Shown one piece after another: positions 16,922 to 26,360 of a stretch of 48,992 nt of DNA. The notes beneath the pieces were generated by a model. It worked only from the letters and a program-made list of their open reading frames with translations. It was not told the origin of the DNA and did not search any database. Each line of letters starts with the position of its first letter. Position 1 is the first letter of the stretch. The stretch covers positions 1 to 48,992 of the forward strand of contig RECV01000171.1 in the NCBI GenBank assembly GCA_007693845.1, in the 5' to 3' direction. The stretch comes from Phycisphaerales bacterium (GTDB taxonomy: Bacteria > Planctomycetota > Phycisphaerae > Phycisphaerales > SM1A02). A program made the position numbers and the translations under genes.

Positions 16922-17572
16922 ATGAGTTCCGAAGCCACCAGCCAGGCGTACCCCGAACCGGTCAACCGATTGATCGAGGAGTTGTCGCGTCTGCCCGGCA
17001 TCGGCCGCCGAAGCGCGGAGCGGATGGCGTTCTTCATTCTCAAGGCCGAGCGGGATGACGCGATGCGTTTGAGCAAGGCGATCGCGGATGTCAAGGACGC
17101 GGTGCGCTGCTGCTCGATCTGTTCGACCTTGACGGATGTCGACCCCTGCCGCATCTGCACGAACCCGCAGCGCGATGCAAGCACGGTGTTGATCGTCGAA
17201 CAGGCGCGCGATCTGATCAGTCTCGAACAGACCGGCATGTACCGGGGCGTGTACCACGTACTGACCGGGCGGCTCGATCCGCTCAGCGGCGTGGAGGAAC
17301 ATGACCTCACGATTCAGCAACTCTTCGAGCGGATTGACGATGCGGCGCAGAACTGTCGAGGCGAGCAGGTGCGGGAGGTCATCCTCGGCCTGAACCCGAA
17401 TCTTGAAGGGGACAGCACGGCCCTTTACCTGTCCGACGAACTGCGAAAGCGGGGGGTGACGGTCTCCCGTCTCGCCCGCGGCCTGCCCTCGGGTTCTCAA
17501 CTCGAATACGCCAGCCGCGCGGTGCTCGCCGACGCGATCATGGGTCGCCAACCGGTCCCGGATGATCAATGA
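16922..17572 (+). CDS. recR: Recombination protein RecR
   Basis: HhH (LPGIGRRSAERMAF), C4 zinc finger (CCSICSTLTDVDPCRIC) and Toprim region. Confidence 0.9.
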   Translation: MSSEATSQAYPEPVNRLIEELSRLPGIGRRSAERMAFFILKAERDDAMRLSKAIADVKDAVRCCSICSTLTDVDPCRICTNPQRDASTVLIVEQARDLISLEQTGMYRGVYHVLTGRLDPLSGVEEHDLTIQQLFERIDDAAQNCRGEQVREVILGLNPNLEGDSTALYLSDELRKRGVTVSRLARGLPSGSQLEYASRAVLADAIMGRQPVPDDQ

Positions 17573-17749
17573 CCCGGTTCCGAGCGGTTTGTGCGATCTG
17601 TTCCGGCGATTCGGGTGAAAACAGTGGGATCCGAGCAAACATGGCGATTGCTGCGGGGGCGCGGCGGGTCTGTCCGATAGAATGAAGGAGCACCGGACCG
17701 GAATGTCCGGGTTCACGGAGGTTTGATGCGGTTCGAGACCGGCCAACAC

Positions 17750-19264
17750 ATGAAGCTCGGCCAGCAGATGAAGCTGGCGCCGCGGATGATCCAGTCCATG
17801 GAGATTCTGCAACTCTCCGTGCTCGCGCTGCAGGAACGCATCGAGCAGGAACTGGAGTCGAACGTCGCGCTGGAACAGGTCGAGCCCGGCCAGCGATTGG
17901 ATCAGGATTCACCCGATGCAGCCGATGACGGCCCGAACGAGGACCGCCTGGACCGACGGGAACTCGTGGTCGGCGACAGCGACGCTACCGGAAGCGATGC
18001 GGATGATTTCGAACGGCTCAGCGTCTTCGAGTCCAACTACCGCGAAGCGTTTGACAACACGTATTCATCCGAACGCTATTCCGCTTCGCGGCAAAGCGGC
18101 GAACGCGATCGCAAGATGGATGCCATGGCCAACATCGCCGCGCGCGGCGAGAGCTTGACCGACCAACTGCTTCATCAGTGGAACTTCACCGATGTCGATG
18201 ACGAAACCCGCGCGATCGGGGAACGCCTGATCGGCTACATCAACGACGACGGGCTGCTCGATACCGACCTCGACACCATCATCGAGCAGAACCGCTCGAT
18301 TCCCGGCGTGGAACTGACCCGCGAATCACTCGAACGCACGCTGCACGAGTTACAACGATCACTCGAGCCGGCGGGAATCGCCGCCCGCGATCAGCGCGAA
18401 TGTCTGCTGCTGCAGGTCGAAGCGCTCGAACAGGAGGACGATGCGAGCGCGCCGTGGTCAACGGTGCGCCGTCTTATCGAAGATCATTTTGATGACCTAC
18501 TCGAAAATCGTCTGCCGCGCATTGCGCGTGAGACGCAACTGTCCATGACGGAGATTCAGGACGCGATCGCGCTGATGCGCAAACTGAATCTCAGCCCCGG
18601 CCGGAACCTCGTCCCCGACAGTGTCGCGCCGATCATTCCCGATGTGCTGGTCGAATACGACGATCAGTCGGATCAGTACGTCGCGGCCCTGACCGACGGC
18701 CTGCTGCCGACGCTTCGCATCTCGCCCCGCTACGAGAAGATGGCCAAGGACAAGGAAGTCGATCCCGATACGCGTGAGTTCGTCGCCAAAAACGTCCGTA
18801 ACGCGACGTGGCTGATCGACTCGATCAACCAGCGCCAGAACACGCTCCTGCGGGTCGTCAATGTCGTCCTATCTCGGCAACGCGAATTCTTCGATCACGG
18901 ACCGCAGCACTTGAAACCGATGCCCATGGTGGACGTCGCGGATCAGCTTGGCATTCACGTCGGCACGGTCAGCCGCGCGGTGGCGGAGAAGTGGATGCAG
19001 ACGCCCCGCGGCATGGTGCCGCTGCGGAAGTTCTTCTCCGGCGGGACCGAAACTGATTCCGGCGAGGATGTCAGTTGGGAAGCCGTCAAGGCCATGTTGC
19101 GCGAAATCGTTGATGCGGAAGACAAATCCAAACCGCTCAGCGACGAAGCGATCGCGACCGAACTCCGAGAGAAGGGCATCGACATCGCCCGGCGTACGGT
19201 CGTGAAATACCGTCAGCAGCTCAACATCCCGCCCGCGCGGCGGCGCAAGATTTACGCCGAGTAA
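17750..19264 (+). CDS. rpoN: RNA polymerase sigma-54 factor
   Basis: N-terminal MKLGQQMKLAPRMIQSMEILQLS (region I), C-terminal RpoN box (ARRTVVKYR). Alternative TTG/ATG starts at 17723/17726. Confidence 0.9.
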   Translation: MKLGQQMKLAPRMIQSMEILQLSVLALQERIEQELESNVALEQVEPGQRLDQDSPDAADDGPNEDRLDRRELVVGDSDATGSDADDFERLSVFESNYREAFDNTYSSERYSASRQSGERDRKMDAMANIAARGESLTDQLLHQWNFTDVDDETRAIGERLIGYINDDGLLDTDLDTIIEQNRSIPGVELTRESLERTLHELQRSLEPAGIAARDQRECLLLQVEALEQEDDASAPWSTVRRLIEDHFDDLLENRLPRIARETQLSMTEIQDAIALMRKLNLSPGRNLVPDSVAPIIPDVLVEYDDQSDQYVAALTDGLLPTLRISPRYEKMAKDKEVDPDTREFVAKNVRNATWLIDSINQRQNTLLRVVNVVLSRQREFFDHGPQHLKPMPMVDVADQLGIHVGTVSRAVAEKWMQTPRGMVPLRKFFSGGTETDSGEDVSWEAVKAMLREIVDAEDKSKPLSDEAIATELREKGIDIARRTVVKYRQQLNIPPARRRKIYAE

Positions 19265-21037
19265 TCACTCGCCCGCAGCAAACCGTCCGGTGTGTTCCAA
19301 CGTGTTGCCCGCATCGTCCTCCGCGCGAAGGCGATAGCTGGCCTCTGCATCCGAGATCCGTTCGATCACGAGGCGGTGCACGAGATGACCCGCCGAGGTT
19401 CGGTCGTGCTCATGCATCAGTAATCGCGCGCCGGTCAACTCAAACTCGACGGATTCTGACTTCAGTCCGTACACCTCGTACTCCAGCCGATTACTTGGTG
19501 GCTGTGATCGCCGCGCGACCGGGCGGCTCCAGTCGTACGGGCCCCATTCCAACATGACGATGTGGTCCCTGCCGCGCAGATGCGTGCGTTGAAATCGTGG
19601 TTCCTTCACGCCCGGCAGACGCGGCGACGGCCAGTCAAACCCGGGAATACTGGGATCCGTCAGACGCCGCACCGTCTCCTGCGTGTGCTCATCCATCACC
19701 ATCATCGTGTCATTTTCAAACTCAAAGAACTCGTTCCCGCGGATCGCCGTGTTGGTGAGGCGGTCGAGGCGCATGCCGATGCCGTCCTCCTCGAACCGGT
19801 TTGAGCCGATCGTGTTGCCGATCGCCTCGGGTGGATTCGCTGCGAACCACGGCAACTCTTCCTTCGGTTCATCCGGATCAGACCAGATCGAAAGCCCGAC
19901 CGGATTCCGTTTGAACCAGGTCTGCCGAATGTGATTCTCCGAACCGTTGCTGAGGGCGACCCCGGCCTGTGTTTGGCTGTCCATCGGCATGTCGCCGTTG
20001 GATTCCAGTTCGTTGCGCATGATGACCGAGCCGTGGACGTACCTCCCGCGGACGCCGGCGATGGCGTTTCGGTTGATCTGGTTGCGCAGAATCATCGTGC
20101 CGCGGCAGAACGAAAGATCGACACCATACGTGATCGCATCGGAAATTTCATTGAGCAGCAGCGCATTCTCATTCGAGCCGCGCTGCGCGTACCAGTCCGC
20201 ATCATCCCGGGGGTTGGTTCGGCCGACCGCTTCATCACCCGCATCGCAGATGATGCCCGCGCCGCCGTGCGTCAGCGAGTTGATCGCGACCACGTTCTCC
20301 GAGGACTGTTCGGTGAGCAGGACCGCTGCAGCACCGTGTGCGCGGTTGTAGATCCGGTGACTGTATCCTCGCACACAGAAATCAAACGCGTTATGGCTGA
20401 TCGTGTTCCCCGTGCTGCGCCAGAGCGCAATGCCCCAGCCGGAGAGAAATGAAGCGTCGTTGTCGTACACCCATGAGTCATGCACGCGATCGAACAGGAT
20501 GCCGTTCTGCGTTTCGCGCACTCGGACGTTGCGAATCGTCACGCCGCTTGAATCCTGCACGACGATCCCGCCGCCGTATCGCTTCATCCACTCGCCATCA
20601 TCGTTCTGCTGCCGATCGAGTCGGTCGCGATCATCCTGACGCCACGGCTTCGAGTGCAGCCGCTGGCGGAAATTGTCGCGCAGCGTCACACCATCGATGG
20701 TCAATCCATCCGCCCCGTGGGCATGAACGCCCACCTTGTATCCGCTGATCGTTCCGCCGCGCAGCGTGACATCCTCGCCGGTGATCACGATCCCGATGCC
20801 GGTCATCTCATCGGGATCGGTGTCCGCATCCGCGCCGCGCAGCACGGCATCATCATCCAGTTCGATGGTGAGCCCGTCGCCGATGATGCGGATGGCGCCC
20901 CGGCCGTCCGGATCGGCGAGCGTCTCCGCGGTGATCTTCACCCGGCTGCTCTCGCGGATTTCAAACGGTGCACGATTGACCTCCACCACCGGCAGCCCCG
21001 CCCACAGCAGCAAAGCGGCCAGCCATGTCGCGCTCAT
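19265..21037 (-). CDS. Secreted right-handed parallel beta-helix repeat protein
   Basis: Signal peptide MSATWLAALLLWAGLP and repetitive beta-helix-like segments (…NVRVRETQNGILFD… NAIAGVRGRYVHGSVIMRNE…). Confidence 0.7.
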   Translation of the reverse strand: MSATWLAALLLWAGLPVVEVNRAPFEIRESSRVKITAETLADPDGRGAIRIIGDGLTIELDDDAVLRGADADTDPDEMTGIGIVITGEDVTLRGGTISGYKVGVHAHGADGLTIDGVTLRDNFRQRLHSKPWRQDDRDRLDRQQNDDGEWMKRYGGGIVVQDSSGVTIRNVRVRETQNGILFDRVHDSWVYDNDASFLSGWGIALWRSTGNTISHNAFDFCVRGYSHRIYNRAHGAAAVLLTEQSSENVVAINSLTHGGAGIICDAGDEAVGRTNPRDDADWYAQRGSNENALLLNEISDAITYGVDLSFCRGTMILRNQINRNAIAGVRGRYVHGSVIMRNELESNGDMPMDSQTQAGVALSNGSENHIRQTWFKRNPVGLSIWSDPDEPKEELPWFAANPPEAIGNTIGSNRFEEDGIGMRLDRLTNTAIRGNEFFEFENDTMMVMDEHTQETVRRLTDPSIPGFDWPSPRLPGVKEPRFQRTHLRGRDHIVMLEWGPYDWSRPVARRSQPPSNRLEYEVYGLKSESVEFELTGARLLMHEHDRTSAGHLVHRLVIERISDAEASYRLRAEDDAGNTLEHTGRFAAGE

Positions 21038-21081
21038 GCTCGATCCTTTCCGGGGTCGTCACCCCTGATGATGAAAATCGT

Positions 21082-21648
21082 TCAGGTATCCTCGATCTCA
21101 GCGCACTTCTTGTCGCACATCTCATCAATCTTCTTCGTGTGCTCTTTGGTCAACTCATCCACTTCCTCGTGCGCGCCCTTGCCTTCATCTTCGGAAATGT
21201 GATTCGACTTGTCTTTCACGATCTGATCGATCTTCTTGTTCGCATCCCGCCGCTCATTGCGAATGGCGATCCGCGCTTCCTCCGCCATCTTCTTGACCTG
21301 ACCCATGAGCTGCTTTCGGCGTTCTTCCGACGGGGCGGGCACATTGATGCGAATCGTGCCGCCTTCGACCATCGGGTTCAGCCCGAGGTCCGCCGTCTCG
21401 ATCGCCTTCACGATTTCGCCCTTGACGCTCGGGTCGAACGGCTTGACCAGCAGTTGCGTCGGCTCCGGGATGCTGACGGACGCCAGCTCACGCAGGTCCG
21501 TATGGTTGCCGTAGTAATCGATCTTCACATAGTCGATCAGCGCGGTGGTCGCCCGGCCGGTGCGAATGCCCCGCATCTCCCGGTCGAAGTACTCGATCGT
21601 CCTCTTCATCTGCTCGCGGCAGTCTCGAATCACGGTATCCAGCGGCAT
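21082..21648 (-). CDS. frr: Ribosome recycling factor
   Basis: 188-aa C-terminal portion of the track ORF matches RRF end-to-end (…IRTGRATTALIDYVKIDYYG…LTEERRK…AIRNERRDANKK). Start MPLDTV (rc ATG 21646-21648). Confidence 0.93.
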   Translation of the reverse strand: MPLDTVIRDCREQMKRTIEYFDREMRGIRTGRATTALIDYVKIDYYGNHTDLRELASVSIPEPTQLLVKPFDPSVKGEIVKAIETADLGLNPMVEGGTIRINVPAPSEERRKQLMGQVKKMAEEARIAIRNERRDANKKIDQIVKDKSNHISEDEGKGAHEEVDELTKEHTKKIDEMCDKKCAEIEDT

Positions 21649-21764
21649 CGTGAGAATCTCCCAAACAGTGCGGTCACAAGAAACAGGCCGCGCATGATAC
21701 ACGCTGAACCCGCCCCGCGGGGCTGTTTCGCCCGCCGAACCGCCCCCGGGCTCGGCACCGGTGC

Positions 21765-22736
21765 TCAGCCCTCCGTCAACTCCGGCCGCGGCTGCGGGTG
21801 ATTCCAGCGTTGCCAGAGACGGACCAAGTCCGGGTCGGCATCGTCGGTGAAGGAGAGGGTCAGGTGACCGGCTTCTCCGATCATCGTCACGATCAACGGG
21901 CCGGAGGTTTCCGTGCACTTGACGAGCATGACCGCGTCGTCCACGGTCCAGCGGCGCTGCTTCCGGTCCGTGACGGTTCCGAGGCCGACGACGGTTTCGC
22001 GGTGATCCATGCGGAACAGGCGCGTGGTATCGCGCACTTCGGGCAGTTGCAGCGCGATGATTGCCGCAAGGACTAGCGCCAGCCACCACGTGCCGAGCCA
22101 GAGCAGGTACACCGCAACCACGATGACAATCCCAATCGCGATCTTGAGGCGCGCTCGCGGCTTGCTGCCGCTTTCAAGAATCCCTTCCGGTTCGAGCATG
22201 TGTTCCGGCAGCGGAATACGACGAAGCGAGGGGCGGGCCTGTTCGTCGATGATGGTTCGCGGCCGCGGGATCGAGCAAGAATCGAGCGCTTCGATGAAAC
22301 TCCGCCAGGTCCACAGGCGCGGCGGGCCGAGAAGGCGAAAACGCCGCTGGCGCTCCAGTTCAAACACGACCTCAACCGCCCGGGGGTCGCCGGTAAACGG
22401 GAGCGAAGGTGGCAGCGGACTCCAGCCGGCCGGGCGTGCGGTTGACCGTTCGTCGATGCGCTTGGTGAAGCGGGCCCAACAGAGCGGAGCAAGAATGACG
22501 AAGTGGAAGATGAGGATGCCCACCCCCCCGGAGATGGCTTGAATCAAGTCACCAGAGACAAAGTAAGTAGAAGCGAAAAATGCTGCGATGAAGACAACGA
22601 TGGCGACTGGACTTTGCAGGTCTTCCCCCACATGCAAAGGCAGCCGCCCGGCCGCAATGTACGGACACTCCGAGTTGGAAGCGCGGGTCTGATCCTCCAC
22701 GCCATGCACGATAAAGCACCAGGCCGGGACGACCAA
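21765..22736 (-). CDS. Hypothetical membrane protein with C-terminal PH-like region (start uncertain)
   Basis: Multiple TM helices (…IAIGIVIVVAVYLLWLGTWWLALVLAAIIAL…). No recognisable family. Confidence 0.4.
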   Translation of the reverse strand: MVVPAWCFIVHGVEDQTRASNSECPYIAAGRLPLHVGEDLQSPVAIVVFIAAFFASTYFVSGDLIQAISGGVGILIFHFVILAPLCWARFTKRIDERSTARPAGWSPLPPSLPFTGDPRAVEVVFELERQRRFRLLGPPRLWTWRSFIEALDSCSIPRPRTIIDEQARPSLRRIPLPEHMLEPEGILESGSKPRARLKIAIGIVIVVAVYLLWLGTWWLALVLAAIIALQLPEVRDTTRLFRMDHRETVVGLGTVTDRKQRRWTVDDAVMLVKCTETSGPLIVTMIGEAGHLTLSFTDDADPDLVRLWQRWNHPQPRPELTEG

Positions 22737-23046
22737 GTCGCAGTGTCAGTGTCCTCCTGCTCGCCGCCGCCGGACGCGATCATCAAGTGCACCGGCAATG
22801 ACCACGGCAGCCGGCTTTGCTCTACCCACCTCGCCATTGCATCCGGCCTCGGCTTCGCTATCTTGCTCTCACAATGATGCCCGGCTTCTACGAATCGCTC
22901 CTCCTGATTCTCATCTTCTTCGGCCCGCTCTTGGCCGCCGCGATGATCGTGCTTCTCGTGTTTCTTGTGCTGCGATTATTGAAGAAGGAGCGGAAGGGAT
23001 GAGTTACGCGGCCGTTCTGCCGCGAGCAGGGAAGAGGCTCGGAAAG

Positions 23047-23103
23047 TGTGCTACGCCGCGAGCGGCGTGCGACCGGCGCGCATCTCGCCGCTTGCGGCGT
23101 AGC
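23047..23103. repeat. REP-like imperfect palindrome, left flank of the RAYT gene
   Basis: GCTACGCCGCGAGCGGCG (23050-23067), 18-nt loop, CGCCGCTTGCGGCGTAGC (23086-23103). 17/18 complementary. Confidence 0.55.
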
Positions 23104-23132
23104 GCGGGTTGAATCTACCATTGACCGCCGTC

Positions 23133-23783
23133 ATGGCACGGCCCATCGTCATCGCGCACCACCTGATCTGGACGGTGTACGGCTGGTGGCTGCCCAACGA
23201 TCCGCGCGGCAGCACATCACGAACGGTCGCGTCAGATCGACTCGCAGCGCTGGGTGAATTGCACTTCGGACGGAAGAAAATCCAGCCGCAATCGCGCGAT
23301 GTGCGCGCGTTTTATGAACGGGCCGCGAAGGAACTCAAGCATCCGCTCCTGGAGATTCGCGATGACGCGGTTGATCTTGTCGCGGATTCATTTGCCGAAG
23401 TGATTGCGGAGCAGAAGTACACGTGTTATGCGTGCGCGATCATGCCGGATCATGTTCACATTCTGATTCGCAAACATAAGCATCGCGCGGAAGAGATGAT
23501 TGATCTCTTGCAGAACGCTTCGCGCTGGGCGCTGATCGAGGCGGGTCTGCGGCCGTCGGATCATCCGGTGTGGACGGGCGGTGGGGGATGGACGGTTTTT
23601 CTTGATCATCCCGATGAGGTTGAGCGGACGATTCCGTACATTGAGCAGAATCCGTTGAAGATCGGTTTACCGCGGCAGGTGTGGCCGTTCGTGGCGGTGT
23701 ACGACCGGTGGCCGTTGCATGAGGGGCATAGTGAGAATTCGCCGTATGTGAAGCGGTTGCGCGCGGCGGGGCGGTATCCGTGA
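23133..23783 (+). CDS. REP-associated tyrosine transposase (IS200/IS605 TnpA-like, Y1 HuH)
   Basis: HHLIWTVYGWW…PDHVHILI (HuH) …conserved Y. Flanked on both sides by copies of GTGCTACGCCGCGAGCGGCG palindromic elements. Confidence 0.8.
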   Translation: MARPIVIAHHLIWTVYGWWLPNDPRGSTSRTVASDRLAALGELHFGRKKIQPQSRDVRAFYERAAKELKHPLLEIRDDAVDLVADSFAEVIAEQKYTCYACAIMPDHVHILIRKHKHRAEEMIDLLQNASRWALIEAGLRPSDHPVWTGGGGWTVFLDHPDEVERTIPYIEQNPLKIGLPRQVWPFVAVYDRWPLHEGHSENSPYVKRLRAAGRYP

Positions 23784-23791
23784 GATCGTGC

Positions 23792-23829
23792 GCGTGCTAC
23801 GCCGCGAGCGGCGGCCGCTTGCGGCTTAG
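23792..23829. repeat. REP-like palindrome, right flank of the RAYT gene
   Basis: GCTACGCCGCGAGCGGCG|GCCGCTTGCGGCTTAGC, near-perfect inverted repeat centred at ~23812. Confidence 0.5.
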
Positions 23830-23902
23830 CGCACGTTAGTTCCAGATTCCCTCAGTTCGTCACCAACGTTCCCCCGCCGGACAGGGCGAGGGGCAGCATT
23901 AC

Positions 23903-24130
23903 TCACGCCGCATCAAGGGCGGCGTAGACCTTACCTTGCTGCTTGAGCCATTCCACGTCGCCGCGATCGGCGCGCTGTTCAATCTCGCGCAGGAGCTCGA
24001 CCGTCTCCGGCTCGTAGCATGGCTCAGACGGATCGGCATCAGGAATCACAGCATCGACTTCCACGACGACAACATACTTGTCCGTGCGGACCATGCGCGT
24101 GCGTCGAACTCGTTTGCCGGGAATACTCAT
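23903..24130 (-). CDS. Small hypothetical protein immediately downstream of the DUF4258-like gene (possible antitoxin partner)
   Basis: 75-aa ORF separated by 5 nt from the upstream gene on the same strand. Confidence 0.4.
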   Translation of the reverse strand: MSIPGKRVRRTRMVRTDKYVVVVEVDAVIPDADPSEPCYEPETVELLREIEQRADRGDVEWLKQQGKVYAALDAA

Positions 24131-24135
24131 GATCG

Positions 24136-24420
24136 CTACTCGTCCAAGAAGTGTACGGTTACCAGCTTCGCATAGTCAATCTCACGCATGTACGACCACA
24201 CGACAAGGACTTCGGTTCCATCGGCCAGTAGCTGCGTGACCTCAACGGACGGATTCGGCTGCGTGCGCGGGCGTTCACGCTGAAGGGCGGCGTTTTGAAT
24301 GCCGTCAACGATCTGCCATTCGAGGATTCGTCGCTCGTCCAGGCGCTCCACCGCATGATGGCCGACGACATAGCGGTTGGCCTCCACGAGTTGCTTGATC
24401 TTCTGAAAGAGTTGGCCCAC
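24136..24420 (-). CDS. DUF4258-family (toxin-like) protein
   Basis: YVVGHHAVERLDERRI matches the characteristic HAxERMxERGI signature of the DUF4258 family. 94 aa. Confidence 0.55.
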   Translation of the reverse strand: MGQLFQKIKQLVEANRYVVGHHAVERLDERRILEWQIVDGIQNAALQRERPRTQPNPSVEVTQLLADGTEVLVVWSYMREIDYAKLVTVHFLDE

Positions 24421-24430
24421 GCGTAGCCCC

Positions 24431-25189
24431 TCAATTGGTCACCAACGTGCCCACACGCTCGCCCGTCACGACCCTGCGGATGTTGCCCTTCTTCTTGAAA
24501 TCGAACACGATCACCGGCAGGTTGCGTTCCATGCACATTGACAGGGCGGTCAGGTCCATCACGCCGAGCTGTTTTTCGATCGCTACGGCGAAGGTGAGCT
24601 GATCGTACCGTGTCGCGCTGGCATCCTTCCGCGGGTCGGCGGAATAGACGCCATCGACCTTGGTCGCTTTGAGGACGATGTCCGCGTTGAGCTCCGCCCC
24701 GCGCAGTGCAGCGCAGGTGTCGGTCGTGAAGAACGGGTTGCCGGTGCCGGCCGCGAGAATGAGCACGCGGCCTTTCTCAAAATGTCGCAGGGCGCGGGCG
24801 CGGATGAAAGGTTCAGCCACGGCGGGAATGTCGATCGCGCTCATGAGGCGGGCGGGCTGGCCGAGATTCTCGATCGCTTCGCGCAGGGCGACGCCGTTGA
24901 TGACGGTGCCGAGCATGCCCATGTAATCGGCGTTGGATTGCGCGATGGTGCCGGTCTCCGCGAGCTGGCCGCCGCGAATGATGTTGCCCCCGCCGACGAC
25001 GATGGCGATCTGCGGGCGGCTGGACGCGTCGGGATTATCCGCGTCGCCGCTTCGCACGGCATCGACGATTTCCTGCGCGATGAGGCCGAGCTCATCGGGA
25101 TCGATACCGAATTCGCCGGGCTTGCTGAAGCTTTCGCCGCTGATTTTGAGAATGATTCGACGGTACTGCTGGTGTGGGGCGTCCGGCAT
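24431..25189 (-). CDS. pyrH: UMP kinase
   Basis: RIILKISGESF…IVVGGGNIIRG…GTGNPFFTTDT motifs. Start MPDAPHQQ (rc ATG 25187-25189). Confidence 0.93.
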   Translation of the reverse strand: MPDAPHQQYRRIILKISGESFSKPGEFGIDPDELGLIAQEIVDAVRSGDADNPDASSRPQIAIVVGGGNIIRGGQLAETGTIAQSNADYMGMLGTVINGVALREAIENLGQPARLMSAIDIPAVAEPFIRARALRHFEKGRVLILAAGTGNPFFTTDTCAALRGAELNADIVLKATKVDGVYSADPRKDASATRYDQLTFAVAIEKQLGVMDLTALSMCMERNLPVIVFDFKKKGNIRRVVTGERVGTLVTN

Positions 25190-25364
25190 GATTGAGCGAT
25201 TCCTCCGATGACTGGCGTCATTGGACTGTCCGTTGCGCGATCGGTCAAGGGCGTTCGCACGCAAATCGGTGGTTCATGGTCCGGTCCCGCCCGAACGATC
25301 ATGCTCCCGGCGTATACTGCCAGCGCGAGTGCGGAACTTCCCAGCCGCGGAGACGTATCAGTTC

Positions 25365-26360
25365 ATGGTGTCACCGACCCCGCCGACAACTTCGCCGAAG
25401 CTGGACGAGCTGCGCAAACAGGTGCAGTTATTGCGGCAGACGGTCCATCGCTTGACCGTGGAGCGGGAGATGCGGTCGCGCAAACGCCGACGCCGCCTGC
25501 TGGCGACCGGCCTCGCGGTCTCGGTGTTTTTTCACCTCGCACTGCTGGTGTATTTCGCGATGATGTCCCGCGCGGGTGATGGTCCGGGCGGGCCTGCTGC
25601 GGATGAGTATCAATTTGCGCTGGTTTTCGATGAGACGCTGACCACGGCGGATACGAGCGGGCTGGACGAACTCGATCTCGATCCCAGCGAGGAGTTGCTC
25701 TCGGAATTGACGGACGCCAGCGACGATGCGTTGGCCGACGCCCCGGCAGCGGCAGATCTCTCCGCCGAGGGCGTGGGCGCGATCGAAACGCTGGGCGGTG
25801 CCGGCGATGGCAGCGCGGGCGGCACGCTCGCCGGTGGGGCGGGGACGAGCTACTTCGGCATTGAAGCGGAAGGCAGCCGGTTCCTCTACATCGTTGATCG
25901 CTCGGGCTCGATGATGTTCGCGCAGCGGATGGAGATCGCCATGCGCGAGCTGCGCGAGTCGGTTGAATCTCTGCCCGACTACACGTCGTTCCAGGTGATC
26001 TTCTTTTCATCGAATCTGCTCGAGCCGGACTTCCAGCGCGGCTGGGCGCGGGCGACGGCCGCGAACATTCGGCGTTACCTCAGTTGGTTCGATCGTGTCG
26101 ATCCGGGTGGCGGAACGATCCCCCGGCCGGCGTTTCTGCTGGCGTTTGAGATGCGGCCGAGGCCGGATGTGATCTTCTTCATGACCGACGGCATTATTCC
26201 CGATCTCAGCGCGGAGGAAATCAACGACATCAATCAGCGCGGCGATCGCGTGGTGATTCACACGATTGCCTTCGGCGATCAGGGCAGCGAAGAACTGCTG
26301 CGGCGGATCGCTCGCGATTCCGGTGGGCAGTACCGGTACATTCCCGATGGAGGACGCTGA
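25365..26360 (+). CDS. Membrane-anchored von Willebrand factor A (vWA) domain protein with acidic/Gly-rich linker
   Basis: TM helix LLATGLAVSVFFHLALLVYFAMM. Low-complexity D/E/A/G region. MIDAS motif DRSGSM. ATG at 25365. Confidence 0.75.
   Translation: MVSPTPPTTSPKLDELRKQVQLLRQTVHRLTVEREMRSRKRRRRLLATGLAVSVFFHLALLVYFAMMSRAGDGPGGPAADEYQFALVFDETLTTADTSGLDELDLDPSEELLSELTDASDDALADAPAAADLSAEGVGAIETLGGAGDGSAGGTLAGGAGTSYFGIEAEGSRFLYIVDRSGSMMFAQRMEIAMRELRESVESLPDYTSFQVIFFSSNLLEPDFQRGWARATAANIRRYLSWFDRVDPGGGTIPRPAFLLAFEMRPRPDVIFFMTDGIIPDLSAEEINDINQRGDRVVIHTIAFGDQGSEELLRRIARDSGGQYRYIPDGGR

Follow-up and report, generated by a model that had tools for sequence, protein, structure and literature searches.

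The genes pyrH (UMP kinase) and frr (ribosome recycling factor) are separated by 2,782 nt (positions 21649-24430) in the window studied here, a whole contig of 48,992 nt from a Phycisphaerales bacterium assembled from a soda-lake metagenome (assembly GCA_007693845.1, contig RECV01000171.1). Comparison with related genomes makes it probable that this interval grew as accessory DNA accumulated in nested fashion at a hotspot of repeated insertion and rearrangement directly 3′ of the pyrH stop codon. The two genes lie on the same strand and in canonical order. The upstream anchor is pyrH at 24431-25189 on the minus strand (Pfam AA_kinase, E=4.8e-30; protein 100% identical to the NCBI entry 'UMP kinase [Phycisphaerales bacterium]') and the downstream anchor is frr at 21082-21648, also on the minus strand (Pfam RRF, E=9.3e-57). 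A distance of 2.78 kb had been noticed in an earlier interpretation made from the letters of this DNA (the sequence-only reading), and these coordinates were confirmed. Look-ups by exact sequence gave no hit for PyrH or Frr of the window, even though the proteins are in the protein database. The short-spacer, co-transcribable form of the pair is thus not found in the window, where two opposite-strand open reading frames (ORFs) intervene.

Adjacency was assessed in 80 species-representative loci that were retrieved with PyrH as the query and in each of which frr was then located. It lies 6-213 nt after pyrH in 72 of the 80, across phyla, in agreement with the earlier premise that the pair is normally adjacent. 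The short gap was present in nine of ten Phycisphaerae-like loci as well as in all Pirellulales/Planctomycetales loci that extended far enough. Outgroups at 58-67% PyrH identity keep the tight pair together with a VWA-domain gene and a NosD-like gene as flanks. For instance, L007 and L008 (PyrH 64-66% identical to that of the window) carry a divergent VWA gene, pyrH, a spacer of 34-43 nt, frr and a NosD-like gene. This backbone is identical to the flanks of the window, in which the VWA-domain gene (25221-26360, plus strand) diverges from pyrH and the NosD-like beta-helix gene (19265-21037, minus strand) lies 3′ of frr. Since the tight pair occurs there within the window's own flanking backbone, the comparison shows the short-spacer arrangement as the likely ancestral Phycisphaerae state and the 2.78 kb as DNA that would have been inserted into it. 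The sequence-only reading had proposed such a look at relatives as a check on its insertion idea, and the idea withstood it: the intervening genes are not shared by relatives and the pair is not routinely unlinked. Loci of the latter kind do exist. In L001, L002 and L005, the closest PyrH relatives outside the genus (81-85% identity), the 2-10 kb around pyrH do not contain frr, and the loci found via Frr (L087-L090, 76-79% Frr identity) are without pyrH, the pair being fully unlinked in these sister lineages.

The gene tsf was found nowhere in the whole 49-kb window. Upstream of pyrH, none of 14 Phycisphaerae-like loci has it, as against 7/7 loci from Pirellulales/Planctomycetales and 50 of the 65 from other phyla. 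The absence of tsf, which had been observed earlier upstream of pyrH, stands as an observation; it is a class-level trait of the Phycisphaerae that is unrelated to the insertion. In all Phycisphaerae-like loci (L001-L014), the place of tsf is taken by the divergent VWA gene followed by a MotA/ExbB–ExbD cluster. Of note, several records of GTDB-representative metagenome-assembled genomes (L006, L008 and L019) bear implausible organism names (Chitinophaga pinensis, Singulisphaera sp. and Comamonadaceae); their PyrH and synteny are Phycisphaerae-like or planctomycete-like and the bins are probably mislabelled or contaminated.

Rather than one cassette, the interval appears to be a stack of at least two layers that differ in age. 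The evidence comes from further comparison loci, which are contigs either encoding relatives of a 311-aa four-helix membrane protein or found via Frr. The gene of this protein occupies 21765-22700 on the minus strand next to frr; its ORF had been listed as 21765-22736, and ortholog alignment moves the start to GTG 22700. In L091 (GCA_003558685.1; PyrH 97% and pyrH DNA 93% identical to the window), the order is pyrH, 209 nt, the membrane-protein gene (hyp313), 203 nt and frr, and alignment of its DNA to the window is confined to 25458-24427, 22713-21769 and 21742-20491. In L086 (GCA_007127615.1; Frr 97% identical), 465 nt of unrelated DNA is followed by the membrane-protein gene (hyp314), frr, a NosD-like gene, rpoN and recR, and the alignment is continuous over window positions 17001-22727 before it diverges. 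The segment spanning the membrane-protein gene and frr shows 84-87% DNA identity to the window in both. The gene is therefore common to three genomes, and the remaining 1.7 kb (about 22714-24427), which holds a mini-ORF, two hairpins, a RAYT-like gene and a putative toxin-antitoxin (TA) pair, was found only in the window. As L091 has the membrane-protein gene and nothing else between pyrH and frr, this gene would form the older layer. Its homologs do not lie beside frr in more distant genomes (L092, L093/L094), so that its position between the two genes would itself be derived. Moreover, even at 93% identity in pyrH DNA, genomes differ in what lies between the two genes. The earlier proposal that an accessory cassette had inserted is thus upheld by the relatives as far as insertion goes; its single-cassette part is contradicted by L091, which shares the membrane-protein gene alone.

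This membrane-protein gene appears to be a vertically inherited, lineage-restricted gene that is not obviously mobile DNA. A word-indexed search found eight relatives and a profile search 218 clusters (at 50% identity); the family is without a Pfam or NCBIfam model. The soluble parts are conserved, the transmembrane parts are divergent and a C-terminal WQRWNHPxPRPEL motif is invariant, a pattern that shows the behaviour expected of a real gene. The C-terminal domain may be PH-like. In the NCBI annotation (EA377_08335, 252 aa), the start codon appears to be placed too far downstream.

The younger layer carries what looks like a physical trace of its arrival. Directly after pyrH lies a 94-aa DUF4258 (BECR-fold) putative toxin gene (24136-24420, minus strand), which matches PF14076 (31.7 bits where the gathering score is 25; E=1.9e-7, 66 of 71 profile positions) and starts 10 nt past the pyrH stop. 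The gene of its 75-aa partner, a putative antitoxin or immunity protein (23903-24130, minus strand), starts 5 nt past the toxin stop. The two genes are bracketed exactly by a 25-nt direct repeat. Copy 1 (24428-24452, minus strand) consists of the last seven pyrH codons (GTLVTN*) and 3 nt (GGG), while copy 2 (23849-23873, minus strand) is an orphan, left from the 3′ end of a pyrH gene (GTLVTN*), and lies 30 nt past the partner stop; the bracketed segment measures 554 nt. The copies are identical at 22 of 25 positions, stop codon included. When the interval was simulated 2000 times with a first-order Markov model, none of the runs gave the pyrH arm a match better than 20/25 (0/2000). Read from the sequence, the three mismatches (GGC/GGA, ACC/ACG and AAT/AAC) are all synonymous and at third codon positions, a pattern that points to two pyrH alleles and not to duplication in situ followed by drift. 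Third-position divergence reaches 3/7 in the repeat as compared with 39/253 between the pyrH genes of the window and L091 (binomial estimate p≈0.07), an excess that is only suggestive given the few sites. The repeat is best explained as a recombination scar, and the orphan pyrH 3′ end as the trace that the insertion would have left behind.

The pair itself appears to be an independent module. A metagenome scan with the toxin returned five loci (L097-L101) with DUF4258 homologs that are 61-67% identical, each with a partner of 74-75 aa (65-76% identical) directly downstream, adjacent or overlapping, so that the partner is always directly 3′ of a DUF4258 homolog. The surroundings of these loci are mutually unrelated and none of the five lies near pyrH; DNA homology runs from about 10 nt before the toxin start to the partner's stop. 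A TA or toxin–immunity function is putative. The partner had no match in Pfam, NCBIfam, PADLOC or PHROGs at permissive thresholds, nor in plasmid records (tblastn) or viral contigs. It does not fall in a recognised antitoxin family and is not MqsA/YgiT-like. Among the five loci, L098, from a soil/peat metagenome, has its pair bracketed by a 26-nt direct repeat (5882-5907 and 6605-6630, 85% identical). This repeat was considered as a second target duplication and set aside, the motif recurring locally: a related motif, GCGAAGCG(A/G)AATCCCG, is found nearby and the repeat may be local.

The point at which this module sits is also where related genomes part ways. In all six relatives compared (L091, L095, L096, L001, L002 and L005), homology to the window ends at 24427-24431, and what follows the pyrH stop differs. 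L091 has a near-perfect hairpin element of about 200 nt (single-stranded DNA (ssDNA) fold, z=-8.35), while two bactofilin genes and ubiB are found in L095/L096, a 148-aa membrane-protein gene followed by bioY in L001, and other ORFs in L002. L005 carries, relative to L001, a 4.6-kb island (L005:10737-15380) that opens 7 nt past the pyrH stop with a 103-aa ORF and the gene of a zinc-finger antitoxin of the YgiT/MqsA type (30.9 bits in Pfam, where the cutoff is 30). Because homology is lost at the stop codon and different DNA follows in each relative, this site appears to be a recurrent hotspot of insertion or rearrangement.

Two observations concern the elements found there. The L091 hairpin (L091:1075-1281) contains an inner 25-mer, GGGTGGGTAGAGCGACGAAGGAGCG, that recurs at L091:2244-2268, around the stop of the membrane-protein gene and the spacer before frr; the repeat looks like a family of the REPIN type or of miniature inverted-repeat transposable elements that is private to the L091 genome, and it is absent from the window. 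The L005 pair is a second TA-like pair at the same site that is unrelated to the DUF4258 pair of the window. Its 103-aa protein was tried as a DUF4258 homolog and rejected, as neither BLASTP nor Pfam gave any similarity.

Beyond the orphan pyrH end, the private segment contains a RAYT-like gene of the Y1 (HUH) transposase type (23109-23783, plus strand, 224 aa). Its best family match is NF047646 (REP_Tyr_transpos) with 46.4 bits against a cutoff of 80 (E=3.5e-12), followed by PF01797 (Y1_Tnp) with 21.3 bits against a cutoff of 23 (E=3e-4). Both scores are below the curated cutoffs and both E-values are significant, which argues for a divergent member of the superfamily; membership in the RAYT family proper is plausible, not proven. 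In alignments with ISDra2 TnpA and the related transposase 2fyx, MPDHVHIL corresponds to the HUH motif. In addition, the translation contains a C-terminal 'IPYIEQNP' (Y-x-x-x-N-P) in which the catalytic tyrosine was assigned by inspection. The gene is single-copy, without a paralog in the 49-kb contig.

Two palindromes forming REPIN-like hairpins flank this gene and share a 20-nt arm (ssDNA folds, z=-5.0 and -3.5). The left one (23048-23106) is an inverted repeat of 94% complementarity with 18-nt arms and an 18-nt loop (−30.3 kcal/mol, z=-4.97), and the right one (23787-23835) was recovered among the repeat families (−22.2 kcal/mol, z=-3.46). Their candidate repetitive extragenic palindromic (REP) sequence is GCTACGCCGCGAGCGGCG. 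One palindrome arm (GCCGCTTGCGGCGTAGCGCG) has a 20-nt exact match about 80 nt downstream of frr in L087, L088 and L089 (arm matches at L087:10653-10668, L088:792-807 and L089:3286-3301; Frr of this relative is only 79% identical), which hints at a dispersed, lineage-wide REP family. The description of this element as a REP-flanked RAYT transposase on the opposite strand was thus right about the strand and the flanking hairpins, the family assignment being weakened to RAYT-like.

The last component is a putative hydrophobic mini-ORF (22817-23002, plus strand) that encodes 61 aa from a TTG or 42 aa from ATG 22874. Its GC content by codon position (0.56/0.28/0.79) is coding-like, and it is without a homolog in any retrieved locus or family library. 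The 42-aa product (22874-23002, plus strand) is MMPGFYESLLLILIFFGPLLAAAMIVLLVFLVLRLLKKERKG and resembles small single-helix membrane peptides; the mini-ORF shares its strand with the RAYT-like gene and is separated by 45 nt from the left hairpin downstream of it. Together with the DUF4258 toxin-like gene, its small partner and the membrane-protein gene, it was present where the sequence-only reading had placed it. Scans of the interval with PADLOC, PHROGs and Rfam returned no matches. Composition was also compared, as had been advised at the outset, and no deviation in GC or synonymous codon usage was detected for any inserted gene (|z|<1 against the contig); the expected deviation did not materialise and the test is uninformative.

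With pyrH at a distance, the question arises of how frr is expressed. The spacer between the membrane-protein gene and frr (21649-21764, minus strand) contains a candidate promoter or leader that emerged from the alignments of the window, L086, L091 and L087. The window, L086 and L091 share a conserved stretch of about 95 nt before the frr start, the sequence just past the stop of the membrane-protein gene being variable, and about 60 nt is conserved in four genomes, including L087, in which the upstream gene is unrelated. The conserved core consists of GTGTATCATGCGC (21690-21702) and a GGGAGA Shine-Dalgarno sequence. A −10-like TATCAT hexamer lies within GTGTATCATGCGC (21694-21699, minus strand). 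For a transcript coming from pyrH to reach the membrane-protein gene, it would have to pass through the TA pair and the right hairpin and then run antisense to both the RAYT-like gene and the mini-ORF. Since the leader is conserved even under an unrelated upstream gene, a candidate frr-proximal promoter or leader, older than the private insertion, is favoured over read-through. Of the two routes that had been envisaged, a new promoter or read-through across the insert, the evidence therefore leans to the former and disfavours the latter. No Rfam family matches the leader, and planctomycete promoters are poorly defined. The locus would show that frr in this clade is not reliant on co-transcription with pyrH.

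The proposed history can be laid out in steps. Comparison shows as its probable starting point a VWA gene diverging from a pyrH–frr–NosD-like series with a spacer of about 35-200 nt. It likewise shows the gene of the 311-aa membrane protein to have entered, most probably in the ancestor of a genus-level group, between pyrH and frr, an arrangement that survives in L091. The 1.7 kb private to the window genome would then have been added between pyrH and this gene, in an order and by a mechanism that are inferred. In one of these additions, the DUF4258/75-aa module would have joined 7 nt past the pyrH stop, an event that placed a 25-nt copy of a pyrH 3′ end beyond the module. This could have occurred either because an element whose attP mimicked the pyrH 3′ end integrated site-specifically at an att-like core there and later decayed to its TA pair, or through homology-facilitated illegitimate recombination anchored in pyrH. 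In the other, the RAYT-like Y1 gene between its two REPIN-type hairpins and the small hydrophobic ORF would have been added on the opposite strand. As for expression, pyrH and the TA pair would form one transcript that probably ends at the hairpin, and frr would be transcribed from a proximal promoter or leader of its own, and possibly together with the membrane-protein gene as well, but not by read-through from pyrH.

Several points weigh against this account. No integrase or recombinase gene lies between the repeats, which enclose only the two TA genes, the Y1 transposase being outside; in L001, L002 and L005 no duplicate of the pyrH 3′ end was found, and there is no second case bracketed by a direct repeat. 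No recombination breakpoint was visible in pyrH by sliding-window identity against L091 and L096. A scan of viral contigs with the orphan 24-mer gave nothing and no attP-bearing element was found, nor did any of the metagenome loci L097-L101 qualify as a donor in which pyrH and the TA pair are linked. In composition and codon usage the inserted genes resemble the host, and neither a foreign origin nor a recent arrival is independently signalled. The palindrome is without further copies in the 49-kb contig, which has just the two flanking doublets. The candidate frr promoter is argued from conservation, a scan for sigma-70 promoters and intrinsic terminators having given no convincing sites above shuffled expectation. 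Finally, all relatives are metagenome-assembled genomes or metagenome contigs, and GCA_007127615.1 carries pyrH and the membrane-protein–frr segment on separate contigs.

Three other explanations have to be set against nested accumulation. The whole 2.78 kb, with the TA pair, the RAYT-like gene, the mini-ORF and the membrane-protein gene, might be one composite mobile island acquired in a single event. Islands commonly carry TA modules along with transposases, and here all genes are contiguous between two conserved anchors. Nevertheless, L091 and L086 carry the membrane-protein gene and frr without the other 1.7 kb, and their spacers hold no residual REP or TA fragments; upstream of the membrane-protein gene, these two genomes and the window are mutually unrelated. 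Furthermore, the TA pair occurs alone elsewhere and its own direct repeat leaves out both the RAYT-like gene and the membrane-protein gene, which makes a single event highly improbable. It is very unlikely as well that the arrangement is ancestral or a product of neutral gene-order drift, with intervening genes that are native and a pair that is no operon in this lineage. The Planctomycetota are known for scattered operons, and the unlinked state of L001, L002, L005 and the Frr-found loci would suit such drift, as would the host-like codon usage of the intervening genes. On the contrary, the outgroups keep the tight pair with the same flanks and the window retains this backbone, the content differs between genomes with 93% identical pyrH DNA, and the orphan pyrH 3′ end would be a direct trace of insertion.

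An assembly artefact, that is, a chimeric contig or a repeat collapse joining pyrH to the membrane-protein gene and frr, would be conceivable for a sequence of metagenomic origin, and the L086 contig does break about 465 nt upstream of the membrane-protein gene. Yet L091, an independent assembly, links pyrH to these genes in the same order and orientation, and an identical copy of the membrane protein is present in an independent Logan assembly (P0254). The junctions are biologically sensible too, one at a stop codon and the other 13-27 nt upstream of the start of the membrane-protein gene. An artefact is therefore extremely unlikely, and nested accumulation at the pyrH stop is the explanation retained here.

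A more specific version of the hotspot can be considered, in which the pyrH 3′ end (the last ~21 nt and the stop, motif GGNACNYTNGTNACNAAYTGA) would act as a specific attachment site in this Phycisphaerales clade and small cassettes would enter through a recombinase acting in trans. Several features fit: the att-like 25-nt repeats around the DUF4258 pair, the distal copy of which resembles a foreign pyrH allele, the TA-like pair of L005 located 7 nt past the stop, and the 200-nt hairpin of L091 at the same point. We regard this version as unlikely. If true, it would describe a hotspot targeted to a protein gene that shuffles TA cassettes without a cis-encoded integrase.

Taken as nested accumulation, the locus would document the stepwise undoing of a near-universal pair, from a short spacer to a lineage gene, then to the TA and RAYT/REPIN additions and, in sister lineages, to full separation. 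It offers a clean, dated worked example of operon erosion through ordinary genome plasticity, all components being of known kinds. Current concepts are unchanged, and the value lies chiefly in annotation and comparative genomics. Three leads come out of it, namely a conserved, non-MqsA-like partner family for DUF4258 toxins, an uncharacterised family of ~310-aa membrane proteins with its 218 clusters, and a candidate att site in a protein gene.

When compared with the canonical rpsB-tsf-pyrH-frr cluster, the window keeps pyrH and frr on the same strand and in canonical order. It differs by the VWA gene that replaces tsf in Phycisphaerae-like loci and by the 2.78-kb separation, which becomes complete in sister lineages. 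The RAYT-like gene resembles RAYTs and the IS200/IS605 TnpA proteins (Y1 HUH) by its HUH motif, its Y-x-x-x-N-P motif and its single copy between hairpins; unlike RAYTs, the protein of 224 aa has an N-terminal extension of about 80 aa and scores below the cutoffs.

The DUF4258 pair recalls type II TA modules of the BECR / RelE-ParE superfamily (PF14076, overlapping Ntox49), being a tight bicistron with a small partner. DUF4258 is among the BECR-fold TA toxin families, with an activity listed as unknown, and DUF4258–MqsA fusions have the toxin first (PMC11980606); a 2026 preprint places DUF4258 in a colicin-like branch that overlaps Ntox49 (10.64898/2026.08.28.747851). In contrast to DUF4258–MqsA systems, the partner in the window is not an MqsA/YgiT zinc-finger protein. 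With 10 nt between the pyrH stop and the toxin start, a promoter serving the pair itself could not fit outside pyrH, which is another difference from type II modules. As in integrative elements that target the 3′ ends of genes (attL/attR), the insert abuts a conserved gene whose 3′ end is duplicated, but the segment is only 554 nt long and comes without a recombinase gene or an attP-bearing element. Finally, the orphan pyrH 3′ copy beyond the insert is reminiscent of the orphaned 3′ regions of Rhs and type VI secretion system effector-immunity arrays, for which illegitimate recombination facilitated by homology has been proposed (PMC5361080, PMC3240628).

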